Shown here in pieces: positions 3,244 to 61,029 of a stretch of 64,000 bases of DNA; position 1 is the stretch's first letter; every line of letters starts with the position of its first letter. This stretch comes from a virus (Duplodnaviria; Heunggongvirae; Uroviricota; Caudoviricetes). Below the pieces are notes generated by a model. That model did no database searches. It saw only the letters and a list, made by a program, of their open reading frames with translations, and was not told the origin of the DNA. Location: IMG/VR virus record IMGVR_UViG_3300037466_003234; one strand, written 5' to 3'. A program made the translations under genes and the position numbers.

Positions 3244-3420
3244 AGAGGCCTCTTCTCTCTTTTCAGCACAAGCGTCGCAAGGGTAAAGAACTTTGCCATC
3301 CTTGACGCGGTAGATAAGCCTAAAGCCATCCACCTTCCAATTACTCACCTGCCGAACGTAACAAAGCTCGCAATCAGGGCATTTACATTCCATGTTGACC
3401 ATCTTAGGAGAAGGTGTCAT
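3241..3420 (-). CDS. small zinc-ribbon protein (59 aa)
   Basis: MTPSPKMVNMECKCPDCELCY...YPCDACAEKREEAS with CxxC...CxxC. Below the 60-aa track cutoff; weak RBS. Confidence 0.3.
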   Translation of the reverse strand: MTPSPKMVNMECKCPDCELCYVRQVSNWKVDGFRLIYRVKDGKVLYPCDACAEKREEAS

Positions 3421-40176: not shown

Positions 40177-40386
40177 TTATAGAACGATTAGTTCCCCTCC
40201 GTCTTGGACTTCGATAGTCATGTCATCTGGAATGCAAAGGTTTGGATAAACTCTGGTGTAGCCATTCATAACGACGAATGGAGCTTTGGCGACATTGCGC
40301 ACCGTAAAGCCCATTTCAAGATCGTTAATGATCTGAAGTTCGTTAGTGAACGGATTTAATGCTGGCTTTGTTCTATTCTGTGCCAT
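40177..40386 (-). CDS. hypothetical small protein
   Basis: ORF coupled to the tail fibre gene. Confidence 0.45.
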   Translation of the reverse strand: MAQNRTKPALNPFTNELQIINDLEMGFTVRNVAKAPFVVMNGYTRVYPNLCIPDDMTIEVQDGGELIVL

Positions 40387-41147
40387 TATGTCACCTTCAC
40401 GTTGGTCATATTGCCGAACTCATCGTACTGCATCGTGAGAGTTGCTACGGCCTGACCGTTAAGCTTATAGGTAGCTCCCGACATATCTTGAGTGTCGGGG
40501 TCATAAGAGATGGAGATCTCGTCATATGGAACCTTGACGAGAGTGTTACGTTTAACGGTTTGTAGTGAACCTTGCCCGGCAGGCCCATCAGGTTGAACGG
40601 CGACTTCAGCGTTTTGATCGCCAATACGAACGGAGTCAGCGGGGGAGTCAGGAGCCTTAGTGCCAGTTTTTGAGGATAGCGCGACGTTAATTTCAGCATT
40701 AACGGTGCCGATGTTAATTGATCCGTCACTGAGCCTTACAGGGAGAGGGTTTGAGGTCTCGTAATAGCGCCCTAGCTGGTCCACCAAGACGTTTCTATAG
40801 GCTACGGCAGGCTCTTGGTCATAGACCGCCATTTCGCGGTCCTGTTGGGTTAACTCGGTCTTTGGCTGCTCTTCAGCGAAGATGTAGGCACCGGCAGAAA
40901 CCGTATAGGAGGTAAGGTTTAGATTTCGGTCAGTAATCTTGCCGCCCATTTTGGTCACGATCATTTGGGTATCGGACAAGACGCGACAGACTAGGACAGG
41001 GAGATTGGGCTGGCCTGGACATGTAATGGCCGCAGTAGCTTTAACTTTGAAGCCACGCGTATTTGCGACAGTGACTAAGCCTGTGGACGTACCATCGCTT
41101 GTAAAGAGCTGCGGGGCGACCGCAGGCCATTTCTTTTCTATAGCCAT
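40386..41147 (-). CDS. hypothetical virion-module protein
   Basis: AAGGAAA SD. First gene downstream of the tRNA cluster. Confidence 0.55.
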   Translation of the reverse strand: MAIEKKWPAVAPQLFTSDGTSTGLVTVANTRGFKVKATAAITCPGQPNLPVLVCRVLSDTQMIVTKMGGKITDRNLNLTSYTVSAGAYIFAEEQPKTELTQQDREMAVYDQEPAVAYRNVLVDQLGRYYETSNPLPVRLSDGSINIGTVNAEINVALSSKTGTKAPDSPADSVRIGDQNAEVAVQPDGPAGQGSLQTVKRNTLVKVPYDEISISYDPDTQDMSGATYKLNGQAVATLTMQYDEFGNMTNVKVT

Positions 41148-41212: not shown

Positions 41213-41288
41213 TGGTCCGAGGGGAGGGAATTGCACCCTCATTTCCGGGTTCGGAAGCCGGCGTTTTAGCTAATTAAACTACCCAAGG
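41213..41288 (-). tRNA. tRNA-like gene, anticodon CCG (Arg) predicted, non-canonical
   Basis: CCA encoded. T-arm GAGGG-TGCAATT-CCCTC. D-stem GTTT/AAAC. Anticodon loop TTCCGAA with a C-C mismatch at the closing pair. Acceptor mismatches at 3-70 and 4-69. Confidence 0.45.
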
Positions 41289-41375
41289 GGCTGTGATGGC
41301 TTTGGGTGAAAAATCAGGTTGTTCGGGCTTGCCAGTAACTCAAATTAGCTATATCGCAAGTACACTTGGAATAAA

Positions 41376-41451
41376 TGGTCCGAGGGGAGGGAATTGCACC
41401 CTCATTTTCTCCTTCACAGGGAGATGTTCTATCTCGCTAAACTACCCAAGG
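41376..41451 (-). tRNA. tRNA-His (GTG), shares acceptor and T-arm with the previous gene
   Basis: Perfect anticodon stem TCTCC/GGAGA, loop CTGTGAA. 3' 31 nt and 5' 14 nt identical to the 41213 gene. CCA encoded. Confidence 0.55.
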
Positions 41452-41461
41452 GACGTTAAAG

Positions 41462-41538
41462 TGGCGGGGCCAGGGGGATTCGAACCCCCGATCTCTGCCG
41501 TGACAGGGCAGCGCATTAGGCCGCTATGCTATGACCCC
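41462..41538 (-). tRNA. tRNA-Asp (GTC)
   Basis: Canonical cloverleaf. T-loop TTCGAAT. Anticodon loop CTGTCAC. CCA encoded. Confidence 0.8.
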
Positions 41539-41543
41539 AAAAA

Positions 41544-41620
41544 TGGCGCACTCCCTGAGACTCGAACTCAGCGCTTACGGTTTAACAGACCGTCTTCTCC
41601 ACCCGGTAGAACTGGAGTGC
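41544..41620 (-). tRNA. tRNA-Asn (GTT)
   Basis: Acceptor GCACTCC/GGAGTGC. Anticodon loop CTGTTAA. T-loop TTCGAGT. CCA encoded. Confidence 0.8.
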
Positions 41621-41625
41621 AAACT

Positions 41626-41702
41626 TGGTAGCGGGTAGAGGTATCGCACCTCTCTGCTAGGCTTATGAGACCTGGCTGGATCTATCTCCAGTCGAACCCG
41701 CT
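41626..41702 (-). tRNA. tRNA-Met/Ile2-like (CAT), non-canonical D-arm and T-loop
   Basis: Acceptor AGCGGGT/ACCCGCT. Anticodon loop CTCATAA. T-arm AGAGG-TGCGATA-CCTCT. Two extra nt before the D-stem. Confidence 0.45.
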
Positions 41703-41723
41703 AAATTAACTTTCCTTTCATTC

Positions 41724-41750
41724 CCCGCCAGGCCCTACTTGCCTGGCGGG
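41724..41750. other. perfect 10-bp GC-rich hairpin between tRNA genes
   Basis: CCCGCCAGGC-cctactt-GCCTGGCGGG. Possible processing or termination element. Confidence 0.35.
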
Positions 41751-41760
41751 ATTTCAAACA

Positions 41761-41836
41761 TGGTGCCTGCTCTTGGTTCCGCTCCAAGTCCTCTAGCTCT
41801 TCAGGCTAGCGCTTCTACTAAGTTAGCTTAGCAGGC
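41761..41836 (-). tRNA. tRNA-Phe (GAA)
   Basis: Acceptor GCCTGCT/AGCAGGC. Anticodon stem CTAGC/GCTAG, loop CTGAAGA. T-loop AGCGGAA atypical. Confidence 0.6.
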
Positions 41837-41841
41837 AAAAT

Positions 41842-41917
41842 TGGTCGGGAAAGCACGATTCGAACGTGCGACCTCCTGTATCCAAAACAGGCCGTCTGAC
41901 CACTGACTTATTTCCCG
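41842..41917 (-). tRNA. tRNA-Pro (TGG)
   Basis: Acceptor CGGGAAA/TTTCCCG. Anticodon stem CCTGT/ACAGG, loop TTTGGAT. T-arm GCACG-TTCGAAT-CGTGC. CCA encoded. Confidence 0.8.
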
Positions 41918-41924
41918 ATTTTAA

Positions 41925-41966
41925 ACCTTATAAAATAAAAAAGCCTCCAAACTTTCGTTGGGAGGC
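41925..41966 (-). terminator. intrinsic terminator for minus-strand transcripts
   Basis: Hairpin GCCTCC...GGAGGC followed on the minus strand by TTTTTTATTTTAT. Confidence 0.55.
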
Positions 41967-42164
41967 CTGTGTTCTTGTTAATTGTACAATAGTGAACACA
42001 AGCCTACATATCAGGGCAATCCTTATTAAAATTATGTTTCGGCATGTGTTTTTGCACAGTAAAATTCCTTATATCTTTATAGATTAGTACGCACTAAAGA
42101 ATATATCATATGAAAAATTACTTAAAAGCGAAAAAATCACTAATTTTAGTAATTTTTAATATTA

Positions 42165-42234
42165 CCGGGGTGCCGTGGTATCGAACCACGCAACTAGTAT
42201 TCGGGCTATTAGACCCTGGCGACCTGCACACCCC
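42165..42234 (-). tRNA. degenerate tRNA-like element (pseudo-tRNA?)
   Basis: Canonical T-arm CGTGG-TTCGATA-CCACG and pairing acceptor GGGGTGT/GCACCCC. D/anticodon region does not fold canonically. No CCA. Confidence 0.25.
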
Positions 42235-42341
42235 AGATTTTCAGATTACAATATAATATGTTAATTCGTTAATGTCAAATAAAAAGGGGCCGACGAATTA
42301 ACGCCGGCCCCGCCTTCAACCCTGAAGTTTATGGGAGGTGA

Positions 42342-42791
42342 TTAGGGGAGGCTTACAGCGCCAGCACCTTCATCTTGAGCACCAGATTCGTCACTTAGAC
42401 GTAGGCCGGTGTAGTTGATGGTGAAACGGCTTGTAGCTCTGGAGTTGTGGTTGCCGTTATATCCGGTAGCCACGCAACCGATAGCGGTTAGGATAGCTTG
42501 GCCAGTTTGACGGTCAACTACGGCAATCGTCACGCCTTCTAGGGTTAGAAGATCCTGAAGCTTAGGAGCTTTAGGAAGTGCGTGAGGTCCGTTACCAATT
42601 ACGCGGAAGCCACCGCATGAGAGGGTGACAGCTTCATAGCTGGTAGGGGTGATTTCGTCTGGGCTGAAACGGCCAAGTAGATGGATTGGCTCAACCCCGA
42701 CACTCATATTGTATGTACAAGTTTCGAAGACACCGACTAGTGCGTTATCCACGTAAACTTTGGCTCTTGCGCCTGTCATTACTTTCGACAT
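42342..42791 (-). CDS. tail tube protein
   Basis: 149 aa directly downstream of the sheath gene. AKVYVDNALVG...RFSPDE...LSCGGFRV is tube-like. Confidence 0.6.
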   Translation of the reverse strand: MSKVMTGARAKVYVDNALVGVFETCTYNMSVGVEPIHLLGRFSPDEITPTSYEAVTLSCGGFRVIGNGPHALPKAPKLQDLLTLEGVTIAVVDRQTGQAILTAIGCVATGYNGNHNSRATSRFTINYTGLRLSDESGAQDEGAGAVSLP

Positions 42792-47900: not shown

Positions 47901-49190
47901 TTACTGCTGTGGGGATTCCGCAGCGTCCTCCTGGGCCGCTGCAGGAGGAGCGGCAGGCGTTTCAGCTTGCTGCCCTGGCTGTTCCGTTGGATCGGCTGGA
48001 GTTTCTTCGGATGGTCCAAGGCCTAGCATCTTTGCCATTTCAATCATGGCCTTAAGCATCATGATCGAAGCTTGATATAGCTGCGGCGCTTGTTCTTTTG
48101 CGCGTTCGAGAATGTCTTTGCTTTGCTTAAAGCCATCAAGGGCTTCGGACACCATTCCAACTACTTTTTCGCGTGCGATCTGATCTGCGTGCTGATCAAG
48201 TCCACCTTGGAGAACTTGCGTGAGATCTGGACCTTGACCTTGATCTTCTTCAGAAAGGCCCATGTCCGCAGGAACGTTTTCTTGGTCTCCTGGGAGCGCC
48301 TGCCCATTCACTGGAAGGGCAGCGTCATCTGACATCGGATCTACTGGAGCTTCTTGATCAAAATGTTGCAGAATATTCTGCATAGCTTGAGCAGTCTCAG
48401 GATCATCTTGTTCTGATCCTTCTGCTGATCCGACGGCTGTGGGGTCTTGCCCAGCAGCGACTTTAGCGTCGTACTCAGCGCAGTGGGGGCAGTCACAACT
48501 GTCTGCACCACCGCGTTCGTCGTATTCTTTACAGTATGGGCAATTGTCGTGATCGTGTTCTTCGCTATTTCCTTCAGCTTGCTTAGCATCGTATTCCTTA
48601 CAATATGGGCAGTCATCGCCGCATGCATGTCCGTCAGCGCCATCCATTTCTGCGCAATAAGGACAATCGTGATGATCATCAGCCGGAGCCGGTTGATCGG
48701 TTGTGGTTTGAACGTCGTCTGATTTTTGTTCTGGAGTCATGTAAGCTTCTCCTAGTTTCTTTTGTTCGGCAGAAGCGTCATCTGCTCCAAGGCTTGATTG
48801 GGCTAGCGCATAGTCCTGCTCTACACTGTCGTCGTAGTTAACGACTTGGTCTTTGCCGCGAAGTTTTCCGACCATGAGGGATTTGCCAGCCTGAGAAAGG
48901 TCTTGTCCAACGCCGACAGTCATGGTTAGGCCTGTCGCGAACTGATAGTCTTTGCGAAGTTCTTCAATGTGGTCCATGGCTTGAGGAGGAACCTGAAAGG
49001 TGCCTTCGTCGCCACCGCCAGAAATGCGGGTTCCGCCCATTTCAGCTACCCAGCGGGTAACGATTTCATGGCCGAGATCAATGCGCTGAGAGGCCTCGCT
49101 GAGACCTTGTGCGTCGTTTGCTAAAATTGCTCTTCCGACCAAACGACCGGCGTTGTCGCCGTCGTAGGCCATAATTAACATGTTATCCAC
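47901..49190 (-). CDS. acidic virion-module protein with N-terminal DxD...GGDE palm-like motif and four CPxC zinc-knuckle repeats
   Basis: IMAYDGDNAG...ISGGGDEGTFQV at residues about 7-62. DCPYCAEMD / DCPYCKEYD / NCPYCKEYD / DCPHCAEYD repeats. Long acidic tail. Confidence 0.55.
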   Translation of the reverse strand: MDNMLIMAYDGDNAGRLVGRAILANDAQGLSEASQRIDLGHEIVTRWVAEMGGTRISGGGDEGTFQVPPQAMDHIEELRKDYQFATGLTMTVGVGQDLSQAGKSLMVGKLRGKDQVVNYDDSVEQDYALAQSSLGADDASAEQKKLGEAYMTPEQKSDDVQTTTDQPAPADDHHDCPYCAEMDGADGHACGDDCPYCKEYDAKQAEGNSEEHDHDNCPYCKEYDERGGADSCDCPHCAEYDAKVAAGQDPTAVGSAEGSEQDDPETAQAMQNILQHFDQEAPVDPMSDDAALPVNGQALPGDQENVPADMGLSEEDQGQGPDLTQVLQGGLDQHADQIAREKVVGMVSEALDGFKQSKDILERAKEQAPQLYQASIMMLKAMIEMAKMLGLGPSEETPADPTEQPGQQAETPAAPPAAAQEDAAESPQQ

Positions 49191-60838: not shown

Positions 60839-60914
60839 GGGGTCGTAGCTCAGTTGGTAGAGCGGTAGCTTTGCAAGCTATAGGTCAAGGGTTCGAGTCC
60901 CTTCTTCTCCACCA
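60839..60914 (+). tRNA. tRNA-Ala (TGC) with imperfect acceptor stem
   Basis: D-arm GCTC-AGTTGGTA-GAGC. Anticodon loop TTTGCAA. T-arm AAGGG-TTCGAGT-CCCTT. CCA encoded. G3-U70 present; mismatches at 5-68 and 6-67. Confidence 0.6.
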
Positions 60915-60957
60915 AGTTTAATTTGCCGCTTGCGGGCGGGGCCTGCCGCAACAGGTC

Positions 60958-61029
60958 GCTATCGTCGTCTAGGGGCCTAGGATACCGTCATTTCGGGCGG
61001 AGACGCTGGTTCAAATCCAGCCGATAGCT
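60958..61029 (+). tRNA. tRNA-Glu-like gene with aberrant anticodon loop
   Basis: Acceptor GCTATCG/CGATAGC. D-arm TCGTCTAGGGGCCTAGGATA and T-arm GCTGG-TTCAAAT-CCAGC parallel E. coli tRNA-Glu. Anticodon region CCGTCATTTCGGGCGG is 1 nt short (6- or 8-nt loop). Confidence 0.4.

Follow-up and report, generated by a model that had tools for sequence, protein, structure and literature searches.

A candidate codon-matched leader attenuator and a putative alternative tRNA elbow in a phage tRNA array

The viral DNA stretch analyzed here, 64,000 nucleotides (nt) of IMG/VR record IMGVR_UViG_3300037466_003234 (hereafter the window), carries on its minus strand seven co-oriented transfer RNA (tRNA) genes for Pro, Phe, Met, Asn, Asp, His and Arg-CCG, all with an encoded CCA end. 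Between a degenerate tRNA-like element and tRNA-Pro, on the same strand, we found a set of leader elements missed by the initial annotation of this DNA (Table 1). We describe this leader, which probably forms part of a ribosome-mediated attenuator of the array, together with the unusual elbow of four of the tRNAs. ARAGORN with default settings called six genes between 41213 and 41917 (Arg-CCG, His-GTG, Asp-GTC, Asn-GTT, Phe-GAA and Pro-TGG), and a relaxed run (-ps90), which the initial annotation had proposed as a check, made eight calls by adding the CAT tRNA and the degenerate element, the latter without an Rfam match. With the Rfam tRNA model in Infernal, five genes scored at or above the gathering score, Asn was not called, and Met and the degenerate element had low scores or none. 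The minus-strand cluster of seven tRNAs and one degenerate element is thereby confirmed. Single-sequence z-scores of the minimum free energy (MFE) of the individual tRNAs ranged from -0.2 to -2.6 and were uninformative.

Table 1. Features of the tRNA array, its leader and its flanks, with positions in the window (nt, nucleotides; bp, base pairs; aa, amino acids; ORF, open reading frame).
Feature	Position	Strand	Evidence or remark
Tail tube gene, 149 aa, upstream neighbour	42342..42791	-	PHROG 985 virion structural protein; identical protein is PF26461 Phi812_tail_tube
Intrinsic terminator of tube gene	42286..42311	-	10-bp stem followed by T run; kept in relatives
Sigma-70-like promoter TTGACA-17-TATATT	42250..42278	-	11/12 consensus matches
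120-nt insertion with promoter and tRNA-like element, window haplotype only	42157..42276	-	Missing from IMG/VR sister haplotype in alignment A1
Degenerate tRNA-like element, 71 nt, 'Arg-CCG'-like	42165..42235	-	Relaxed ARAGORN only; no Rfam match
Extended -10 promoter TGATATATT	42100..42108	-	Invariant in alignment A2; 43 nt upstream of start codon
Shine-Dalgarno AAGGA, 8 nt before start codon	42066..42070	-	Invariant in A2
Leader ORF MQKHMPKHNFNKDCPDM, GTG start, 17 codons and TAG	42004..42057	-	Translation; length variants in relatives
Attenuator region 1, 5' part of leader ORF	42041..42058	-	Pairs with region 2 in free-RNA MFE
Attenuator region 2, from last base of stop codon	41983..42004	-	Pairs with region 1, or with region 3 if region 1 is masked
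Attenuator region 3 GAACACAGGCC, 3' strand of antiterminator	41964..41974	-	Shares GCC with terminator stem
Intrinsic terminator GCCUCCCAAC-GAAA-GUUUGGAGGC and U6	41937..41968	-	Folds; ends ~20 nt before tRNA-Pro
tRNA-Pro(UGG), canonical, CCA encoded	41842..41917	-	ARAGORN, Rfam (63 bits)
tRNA-Phe(GAA), T loop AGCGGAA (A54, G55), D loop without GG, A8	41761..41836	-	ARAGORN; 43 bits
GC-rich 10-bp hairpin without U tract, between Phe and Met	41724..41750	-	z = -4.1
tRNA-Met(CAU)-like, 77 nt, shifted 5-bp D stem CUGGA/UCCAG, CCA encoded	41626..41702	-	Relaxed ARAGORN
tRNA-Asn(GUU), canonical elbow, A8	41544..41620	-	ARAGORN, not in Rfam calls; orthologue in L228
tRNA-Asp(GUC), canonical	41462..41538	-	ARAGORN; 67 bits
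tRNA-His(GUG), A73, no G-1, U3.C70 and U4.U69, A18/G55-type elbow	41376..41451	-	ARAGORN, Rfam (54 bits)
His-Arg spacer, 87 nt	41289..41375	-	Identical in both haplotypes
tRNA-Arg(CCG), His paralogue, C31.C39	41213..41288	-	ARAGORN, Rfam (49 bits)
Downstream gene, 253 aa, function unassigned	40386..41147	-	No Pfam/PHROG match; homologues after tRNA site in relatives

The array is the tRNA operon of an Mx1-like myovirus of ~170 kb. The tube protein is 100% identical in the 170-kb contig IMGVR_UViG_3300037423_001736, and the window DNA is 97.6-99.2% identical to it; with this level of DNA identity despite an identical tube, the window is therefore a sister haplotype of the IMG/VR contig. In the following, L-numbers label the loci that were retrieved for comparison, and L001 is this IMG/VR sister haplotype. 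A sheath gene (713 aa, PHROG 279) lies directly upstream of the tube gene, and its product is 42% identical to the sheath of Myxococcus phage Mx1, the only characterised relative.

We compared the leader among the window, the sister haplotype and L228, a relative with a 93% identical tube, in a three-way alignment (A2). The promoter, the Shine-Dalgarno sequence and attenuator regions 1, 2 and 3 are invariant, whereas the ORF has a hypervariable centre, where in-frame indels result in lengths of 17, 18 and 19 codons. The terminator before tRNA-Pro has a 9-bp stem with one mismatch and a U6 tract, and lies outside the loop definition of a simple terminator scan; in L228 it carries one compensatory C:G to G:C change. 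We then folded the leader at equilibrium with an assumed ribosome footprint of -15 to +12 nt as a constraint. The free leader folded into the 1:2 helix and the full terminator (-35.7 kcal/mol). When the footprint was masked at codons 4-8, an 11-bp 2:3 helix appeared and the terminator was reduced to 3+3 bp. With the footprint at codon 13 or over the stop codon, the terminator was restored in full. The three fold states were equally obtained for L001 and L228.

The TGATATATT motif is conserved in the phage family: it is also present after the tube terminator in the more distant relatives L231, L007 and L005, and its consensus TRTGATATA occurs four times in the window against 0.78 expected copies; one other copy precedes a tRNA-Ala gene described below. 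Searching IMG/VR for the attenuator core returned no copy beyond the same contig, and a search for further leaders of the MKM type, the variant of those distant relatives, returned only the two already known ones. Matches of the Rfam models Phe_leader (17 bits), His_leader (21 bits), trpB and L10_leader over the leader were far below the gathering scores and were dismissed as noise. As a separate observation, L231 has between promoter and leader, at ~1530-1640, a duplicated TGTGATATATT promoter motif and tRNA-fragment-like pieces (a GTGAGTTCGAGTCTCAC T arm and a GTAGCTCAATTGGCAGAGC D arm), which resemble the 120-nt insertion of the window.

The codons of the leader match the anticodons of the array behind it. 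We scored the match with strict wobble rules and obtained a joint P against stop-free shuffles that keep the base composition of the leader; joint P was similar against random windows of the phage's long ORFs. In the window, 10 of 16 leader codons are read by array tRNAs and six of the seven anticodons are represented, all except Arg-CCG (joint P 7e-5). The leader of the sister haplotype has 11 of 17 cognate codons and covers 7 of 8 anticodons (joint P 2e-4), and the L228 leader has 15 of 18 and covers 8 of 8 (joint P <1e-5), with an array of Tyr-like, Gln, Pro, Met, Glu, Asn, Asp and His genes at the same site. Together with the two leaders of an unrelated phage presented below, the match is significant in five of six leader-array pairs, and each of these five leaders fits its own array best. 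A Tyr codon is found only in the two leaders whose arrays hold a Tyr tRNA, a Phe codon only where the array has a Phe tRNA, and a Glu codon only in L228, in which Gln codons also increase from one to three. Leader codons thus change along with tRNA gain and loss, even between 99%-identical haplotypes. The zone in which a stalled ribosome alters the predicted fold, codons 2 to ~10, includes His, Met, Pro, His, Asn and Phe; Asp is codon 13, where the fold already restores the terminator.

These data bear on the simplest account of the locus, in which the array is a constitutive codon-usage supplement for late genes, the leader ORF arose by chance or encodes a micropeptide without connection to the array, and the hairpins amount to a leaky terminator. 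Codon compensation is the textbook explanation of phage tRNAs, the phage ORFs make frequent use of His, Asp, Asn, Phe and Pro codons, and the arrays of the relatives L004 and L006 stand directly behind the promoter without a leader. We nevertheless regard this account as improbable: a chance ORF would not be expected to give joint P values of <1e-5 to 6e-4 in five leader-array pairs, each best with its own array, nor to have its codons co-vary with the tRNA content, and both the invariance of regions 1, 2 and 3 around a hypervariable ORF middle and the switching of the folds with ribosome position argue against it. In addition, Arg-CCG is not explained by codon supply alone because its codon CGG is the rarest Arg codon in the phage (5% of Arg codons).

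We scanned all retrieved loci blindly for the combination of Shine-Dalgarno sequence, short ORF, terminator and tRNA block, which covered 31 arrays (150 blocks). The scan recovered the window lineage and two arrays of one unrelated 177.8-kb phage (L053, the same as L177) that is binned in a Melioribacteraceae metagenome-assembled genome (MAG). Array 1 of this phage encodes Phe, Lys(UUU), Lys(CUU), Arg(ACG), Ile(GAU), Val(GAC) and Gly(GCC) behind the leader MMNVFKKISFGRWGFKPHVRLFL and a terminator; 14 of 22 leader codons are cognate, all seven anticodons are represented, and joint P is 1e-4. Array 2 encodes Gly(UCC), Ser(UGA), Cys, Ser(GCU), Ile(UAU), Ser(GGA), His and Leu(UAG) behind the leader MNKLLSSHSLSLSSYIGCEIGLLW and a terminator, with 13 of 23 cognate codons, 8 of 8 anticodons and a joint P of 6e-4. 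When scored against each other's array, the two leaders MMNVFKKISFGRWGFKPHVRLFL and MNKLLSSHSLSLSSYIGCEIGLLW reached only 4/22 and 2/23. The choice among synonymous codons follows the anticodons for Ile, and less cleanly for Gly. The Ile codon is ATT in MMNVFKKISFGRWGFKPHVRLFL, whose array has Ile(GAU), and ATA, twice, in MNKLLSSHSLSLSSYIGCEIGLLW, whose array has Ile(UAU). GGT occurs twice in MMNVFKKISFGRWGFKPHVRLFL and is read by Gly(GCC), and GGA in MNKLLSSHSLSLSSYIGCEIGLLW is read by Gly(UCC), while a GGT in MNKLLSSHSLSLSSYIGCEIGLLW is not read under the strict wobble rule. In array 1, masking the ribosome at codons 5-9 replaced the terminator by an antiterminator, the 5' strand of which lies in the end of the ORF; array 2 has a 9-bp candidate antiterminator (GUCUGCUUU versus AGAGCAGAC). 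Two further candidates, L177 block 1 and L189, had no cognate codon and were rejected as chance ORFs. The small coding sequences between the tRNAs of Mx1 showed no leader-like design. The 'RNA ligase A' annotation in Mx1 belongs to a Cys-rich ORF of 89 aa, and we did not rely on it.

Taken together, the modelled folds and the codon match make it probable, though by no means assured, that the array is controlled by a ribosome-mediated transcription attenuator that is switched on when cognate tRNAs are scarce. The leader RNA with its 17-codon ORF would start at the extended -10 promoter. In the free RNA, region 1 would pair with region 2 and the 3:4 terminator would form, and the same terminator would result from a ribosome that has advanced to the stop codon and occludes region 2. 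Stalling at codons 2-9 (Gln Lys His Met Pro Lys His Asn; partly also at Phe, codon 10) would instead free region 2 for region 3, and the 2:3 pairing would strip the GCC base off the terminator, so that RNA polymerase could read through into the tRNA genes. A shortage of any array-cognate tRNA, whether from demand, host shut-off or tRNA-cleaving defences, would induce tRNA synthesis because the codons at which stalling matters are decoded by tRNAs of the array itself, and the newly made tRNAs would restore termination as a negative feedback. This logic fits a role in replacement on depletion, but it also suits a supply at high demand.

Several observations weigh against an attenuator. The leader ORF was noticed post hoc, during inspection of the region, and folds computed at equilibrium with an assumed footprint can only approximate how the RNA folds during transcription. 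In the window leader, Arg-CCG has no codon, and the Gln, Lys and Cys codons have no array tRNA. There are no runs of one regulatory codon; each amino acid occurs one to three times, and the only tandem is NN in L228. The three leaders of the window lineage are related and are not independent tests. The distant relatives L231, L007 and L005 keep promoter, Shine-Dalgarno sequence, ORF (MKM...), hairpin and terminator, but hairpin and terminator coexist in their MFE folds, and their codon match is not significant (P 0.12 in L231), with arrays that are cut by contig ends. Finally, the 31 arrays yielded only two further convincing cases, both from one phage, and in array 2 of that phage the terminator persists in every equilibrium fold.

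Four of the seven window tRNAs have T loops without U55, namely UGCAAUU in His and Arg, UGCGAUA in Met and AGCGGAA in Phe; Pro, Asn and Asp have the canonical elbow. The initial annotation had recognised such T loops in three members, to which Phe has to be added. The D loops of the four G55 members contain AG in place of G18G19 (uAGc, gAGa, uAGa and uAGu). In tRNA-His the two loops switch as a unit, from AAGUGGCA with UUCGACU in L228, where the elbow is canonical, to AGCGAGAUA with UGCAAUU in the window. Among 301 unique ARAGORN tRNAs from the window and the retrieved loci, a U55 was accompanied by a D loop with GG in 242 cases and without GG in 6, and a G55 by GG in 6 and by its absence in 42 (Fisher's exact test, 6e-38); AG was found in the D loop of 44 of the 48 G55 tRNAs. 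This covariation of G55 with the loss of GG points to an alternative A18/G55 elbow, in which G19-C56 would be kept and the G18-Psi55 contact replaced by A18-G55. Phe, Met, His and Arg can, on these sequence grounds, be assigned to a recurrent A18/G55 class that is typical of mobile arrays and some transfer-messenger RNAs (tmRNAs).

The exact 17-nt T arm of His and Arg, GAGGGTGCAATTCCCTC, has at least 120 occurrences in IMG/VR viral contigs (loci L035-L154). Among the IMG/VR matches listed, ~30 of these T arms lie in phage tmRNA genes (tags such as ANNLAMAA and ANDNFA..ALAA); many others belong to a short 'minihelix' in 3' untranslated regions (AGCTAAATAGATTTAATG, T arm, CCTAGCT), and further ones to a tRNA-like element rich in AT, TGTTGGTAATAGC...CACCAACA, which escapes ARAGORN; tRNAs are also among the matches. 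A search of 185,579 species genomes found the His/Arg T arm with a following CCA 62 times, with a pattern that demanded an encoded CCA and therefore says nothing on housekeeping tRNAs of bacteria that do not encode it. Most of the 62 are tmRNAs with the T loop UGCAAUU in MAGs of Omnitrophota, Fermentithermobacillaceae, other Bacillota and Saccharibacteria (L165-L226), and the tRNA cases sit in dense arrays. G55 thus looks like a tmRNA variant that spans entire lineages in some phyla. In the dense arrays of L173 (a Lacunisphaera MAG, DASYDH010000050.1) and L208, nearly all members combine a G55 T loop with an AG D loop, and these members include Arg, Asn, Cys, Gln, His, Ile, Leu, Met, Pro, Tyr and Val, which amounts to a near-complete parallel set of alternative-elbow tRNAs. 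Two reviews of the tRNA elbow and of non-canonical tRNAs cover the loss of the G18-Psi55 contact in other non-canonical tRNAs and do not mention an A18/G55 class (PMC7609411, PMC4810234).

The acceptor stems and anticodon arms are likewise unusual. His and Arg share their first 14 nt and their last 32 nt, so that the identity reported by the initial annotation is right for the 5' end and one nucleotide longer than stated (31) at the 3' end, and the acceptor mismatches that it saw in two members are the U3.C70 and U4.U69 pairs of both genes. Arg-CCG derives from His as a paralogue, with the T arm and acceptor of the window His unchanged and a D arm that resembles the one in the L228 His. The L228 orthologue of His has the same acceptor stem with both mismatches and A73, and its anticodon and T stems are changed by compensation; in both phages, His departs from canonical bacterial tRNA-His in having C at -1 and A73 instead of an encoded G-1 opposite C73. 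Homologues of the Met(CAU) gene, which has the T loop UGCGAUA and a C.A mismatch in its anticodon stem, occur in L228 and in two tRNA arrays (L198 and L204) that were binned with Planctomycetota MAGs. When the four sequences are placed on a cloverleaf with a shifted D stem, 93.5% of the cells are paired, and four pairs are changed on both sides, including A-U/G-C/U-A at one anticodon-stem pair, while the C.A mismatch and G55 are present in all four. In the L228 Met, letters 54 and 58 are swapped (U..A to A..U). Bacterial initiator tRNA-fMet has a 1:72 mismatch and three G:C pairs at 29-31:39-41; in this family position 1:72 is A1-U72 in the window and L228 and U.U and C.U in L198 and L204, and the anticodon stem has only two or three G:C pairs, in offset positions. 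Compensatory changes were seen in the Met, His, Pro and Asn orthologues, which indicates purifying selection on tRNA structure.

Because the orthologues keep the odd features while their stems change by compensation, the non-canonical members are very probably not pseudogenes. By this covariation, the non-canonical and 'chimeric' members pointed out by the initial annotation appear to be real, conserved functional RNAs. The opposite view explains Arg, His, Met, Phe and the degenerate element as pseudogenes or as chimeras of the assembly, and is very improbable. It could draw on the low or absent Infernal scores of Met, Asn and the degenerate element, on the missing universal U55 and G18 and the acceptor mismatches, on two short-read assemblies that break exactly at the 32-nt His/Arg repeat, and on the degenerate element, which has good acceptor and T arms, a weak D arm, the loop GCCCGAA with C33 and no CCA, and exists in one haplotype only. 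Yet the oddities are kept in orthologues of other phages, the sequence is identical in four independent assemblies, G55 and the loss of GG go together in 42 of 48 tRNAs, whole arrays of G55-type tRNAs exist (L173), and cognate codons are present in the leader. A pseudogene reading is plausible only for the degenerate element and perhaps for Arg-CCG. As judged from sequence, the Phe, Met and His genes are very probably functional; Arg-CCG is the least secure of the seven and its function less certain, and function of the degenerate element is doubtful. The tandem acceptor mismatches look selected.

A few further tRNA genes were noted in passing. On L252 (IMGVR_UViG_2831870349_000001), an unrelated GC-rich viral contig, a tRNA at 3269-3347 has a mismatched acceptor of the His/Arg type (CCUUGGG/CCCUCGG, A73, CCA) on a canonical body, with an odd anticodon loop that reads UGA or has 9 nt. 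The window itself contains a second tRNA locus on the plus strand at 60839-61029, right behind a TATGATATA promoter-like motif. Its tRNA-Ala(UGC) at 60839-60914 combines G3.U70 with tandem U5.U68/C6.U67 mismatches, similar to His and Arg. The tRNA-like gene after it, 72 nt long, lacks a CCA and has an anticodon loop of 6 nt (AUUUCG); its acceptor, D and T arms are perfect. In L228, a Tyr-GUA class-II tRNA-like gene (1352-1447) with the T loop UUAAACU (A56) was called neither by ARAGORN nor by Infernal and forms a full cloverleaf by MFE alone (z = -2.6). The alternative Pro-UGG allele of L001 (6854-6931) has C33 in its anticodon loop (CCUGGAA), a position where U33 is near-universal.

The set of isoacceptors had led the initial annotation to propose that the cluster matches the targets of anticodon nucleases and may serve as a cleavage-resistant replacement kit; on this reading, the odd bodies (G55 elbow, acceptor mismatches) would make the phage copies insensitive. 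The proposed match is not specific, since the target list is broad enough for almost any tRNA set. Tyr, the fourth Q-family tRNA, is missing in the window haplotype, although the sister haplotype has it. The anticodon loops of Asn (CUGUUAA), Asp (CUGUCAC) and His (CUGUGAA) are of ordinary sequence and hold nothing that predicts resistance to colicin E5. The deviations lie in the elbow and the acceptor stem, whereas known anticodon nucleases act at the anticodon loop or stem. For these reasons we rate a resistant kit as rather unlikely, while a number of findings agree with it: the body changes are conserved and not decaying, the attenuator logic implies induction on tRNA shortage, and Arg-CCG is unexplained by phage codon demand. 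T5 tRNA-Lys reportedly counters PARIS AriB, T5 tRNA-Tyr the retron PtuAB, and mycobacteriophage tRNAs VapC, and the PARIS and retron cases count in its favour. The general idea that phage tRNAs replace host tRNAs destroyed in infection had already been put forward by van den Berg et al. (2023, PMC10264068). A kit is also compatible with the attenuator, which could be its sensor.

Returning to the locus, the putative attenuator and the tRNAs lie in a variable genomic slot. In the alignment of the window with the sister haplotype (A1), differences come as whole cassettes. The 120-nt insertion recurs at 100% identity in Logan SRR35106392, the -35 hexamer of its TTGACA-17-TATATT promoter arises across the insertion junction, and an IMG/VR search for its degenerate element gave no further match. 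The sister haplotype lacks the insertion and contains two genes not seen in the window, an extra Tyr-GTA gene and a Pro-UGG allele in which every stem differs from the window allele by compensation. ARAGORN's 'tRNA-Tyr' in L001, first taken for a false positive over the terminator, was shown by the alignment to be a genuine extra gene. The Phe-to-Arg stretch (624 nt with spacers) has no substitution and one 9-nt indel between the haplotypes, and its flanks differ by 0.8-2.6%. Both haplotypes were found again in independent Logan assemblies (L255 and L256), the window haplotype at 100% identity in SRR35106392; the window sequence is therefore real and not an assembly artefact. The short-read assemblies L255 and L256 both end inside the 32-nt His/Arg repeat; paralogous tRNA ends of this kind can break phage assemblies at tRNA arrays. 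The hairpin between Phe and Met has an equivalent of different sequence at the same place before the Met tRNA in L228 (1620-1650), and may divide the array into two parts as a site of processing or pausing.

Relatives fill the same site differently. A weak HNH ORF follows the L228 array, and L002 (tube 81% identical) has a 478-aa Mom/DUF723 ORF and no tRNA; this ORF was first considered as a homing endonuclease, and Pfam gave Mom-family and DUF723 domains instead. L004, L006, L007, L005 and L231 (tube ~65% identical) have other tRNA sets, and in many relatives the slot is empty. In Mx1 a tRNA array also stands directly after sheath and tube, with HNH and Hef-like endonuclease genes interspersed. 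The slot after the tail-tube gene is a recombination-prone, family-wide hot spot for shuffled tRNA cassettes. Near and distant DNA searches of phage GenBank found only generic tRNA matches at 77-85% identity and no relative of the cluster. The initial annotation had placed the cluster between tail fibre and tube: the tube (PHROG 985, PF26461) is borne out, whereas Pfam and PHROG searches with the 253-aa and 1176-aa downstream genes returned nothing pointing to a tail fibre. Among the neighbour genes, Pfam and PHROGs named only the sheath, the tube and an mCpol domain. The last is the N-terminal minimal CRISPR polymerase domain (PF18182, E = 2.6e-10) of a 429-aa ORF at 47901-49190 (minus strand) in the structural/tail module, which may encode a nucleotide-signalling or counter-defence enzyme.

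Whether phage tRNA genes supplement codon usage or replace destroyed tRNAs has been debated for ~50 years. Attenuation and phage tRNAs are each known; their combination, and a multi-codon leader that acts as a 'mirror' of the array, appear to be new. A mirror leader would make that debate readable from sequence, as it states the shortages to which the phage responds and predicts on-demand, self-limiting expression. We advance a wider two-part proposal only tentatively, with somewhat less than even confidence: phage and mobile tRNA arrays may commonly carry programmable multi-codon attenuators, and the A18/G55 elbow and the conserved tandem pyrimidine mismatches of acceptor stems may mark a separate mobile-element tRNA lineage. 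If so, a leader would be a codon-by-codon readout of the array tRNAs, rewritten at each gain or loss of a cassette; the array would be a self-regulating emergency supply that fires when any encoded tRNA is depleted, for example by a tRNA-cleaving defence; and the A18/G55 lineage might be shaped by conflict with host tRNA-directed enzymes. If general, tRNA genes would join the targets of classical attenuation, leaders could predict limiting or attacked tRNAs in uncultured hosts, and compact multi-input sensors of tRNA availability would become accessible to synthetic biology. The A18/G55 class suggests that tRNAs of mobile elements explore a structure space almost unused by cellular tRNAs, and its elbow bears on recognition by RNase P, TruB/TrmA, the ribosome and tRNA-directed nucleases, as well as on orthogonal tRNA design.

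Among known systems, the phage tRNA clusters of T4, T5 and Mx1 resemble the window array in their tandem co-oriented genes, large lytic-type phage, nearby endonuclease genes and variable content; unlike them, the window array has four of seven members with a non-canonical elbow. Counter-defence phage tRNAs also differ, in that their resistance maps to the anticodon stem-loop, a part that is ordinary in the window tRNAs. The lost G18-Psi55 contact is shared with tRNA-Pyl, type II mitochondrial tRNAs and the tymovirus tRNA-like structure, which has a UGCAA T loop and for which the Rfam consensus shows GGGGUGCAACUCCCC. In contrast to these, the tRNAs of the phage class retain T loops of 7 nt with C56, D loops of full size with G19, and stems of normal length; the swap is confined to the 18/55 pair (A18/G55), and the class is found in arrays of bacterial viruses and in tmRNAs. 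The Anabaena trn array, composed of mobile supernumerary tRNAs with an HNH endonuclease, is silent until translation is impaired and is then strongly induced; a labile repressor acting on direct repeats of the promoter has been proposed, and no leader ORF or attenuator was described (PMC8421152). It is a conceptual precedent for an induced array, but one that is bacterial or plasmid-borne, whereas the window array is phage-borne.

T-box riboswitches resemble the proposed attenuator in that tRNA status controls read-through of a terminator. They differ in binding uncharged tRNA directly and in having no ORF, and in the window the T-box model (RF00230) gave no match even at E <= 10, nor was there a specifier or antiterminator bulge. 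Leader-peptide control of tRNA operons or phage tRNA clusters was not found in a literature search of incomplete coverage. Close parallels are the amino-acid attenuators (trpL, hisL, pheL, leuL, thrL, and pheM of pheST), with which the phage leader shares a short promoter-proximal ORF with a Shine-Dalgarno sequence, four RNA segments with predicted, mutually exclusive 1:2, 2:3 and 3:4 helices, a terminator before the regulated genes and codons cognate to what is regulated; an early stall is likewise predicted to give read-through, and a ribosome at the stop codon to give termination. Unlike those attenuators, the phage leader would regulate tRNA genes and not biosynthetic or synthetase genes, and the element is phage-borne. 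Where the his, phe and leu leaders have runs of regulatory codons, the phage leader mixes six to eight amino acids, one to three times each, as an OR gate that mirrors the anticodons of the array. The product of the phage array, tRNA, would moreover act directly on the sensor.

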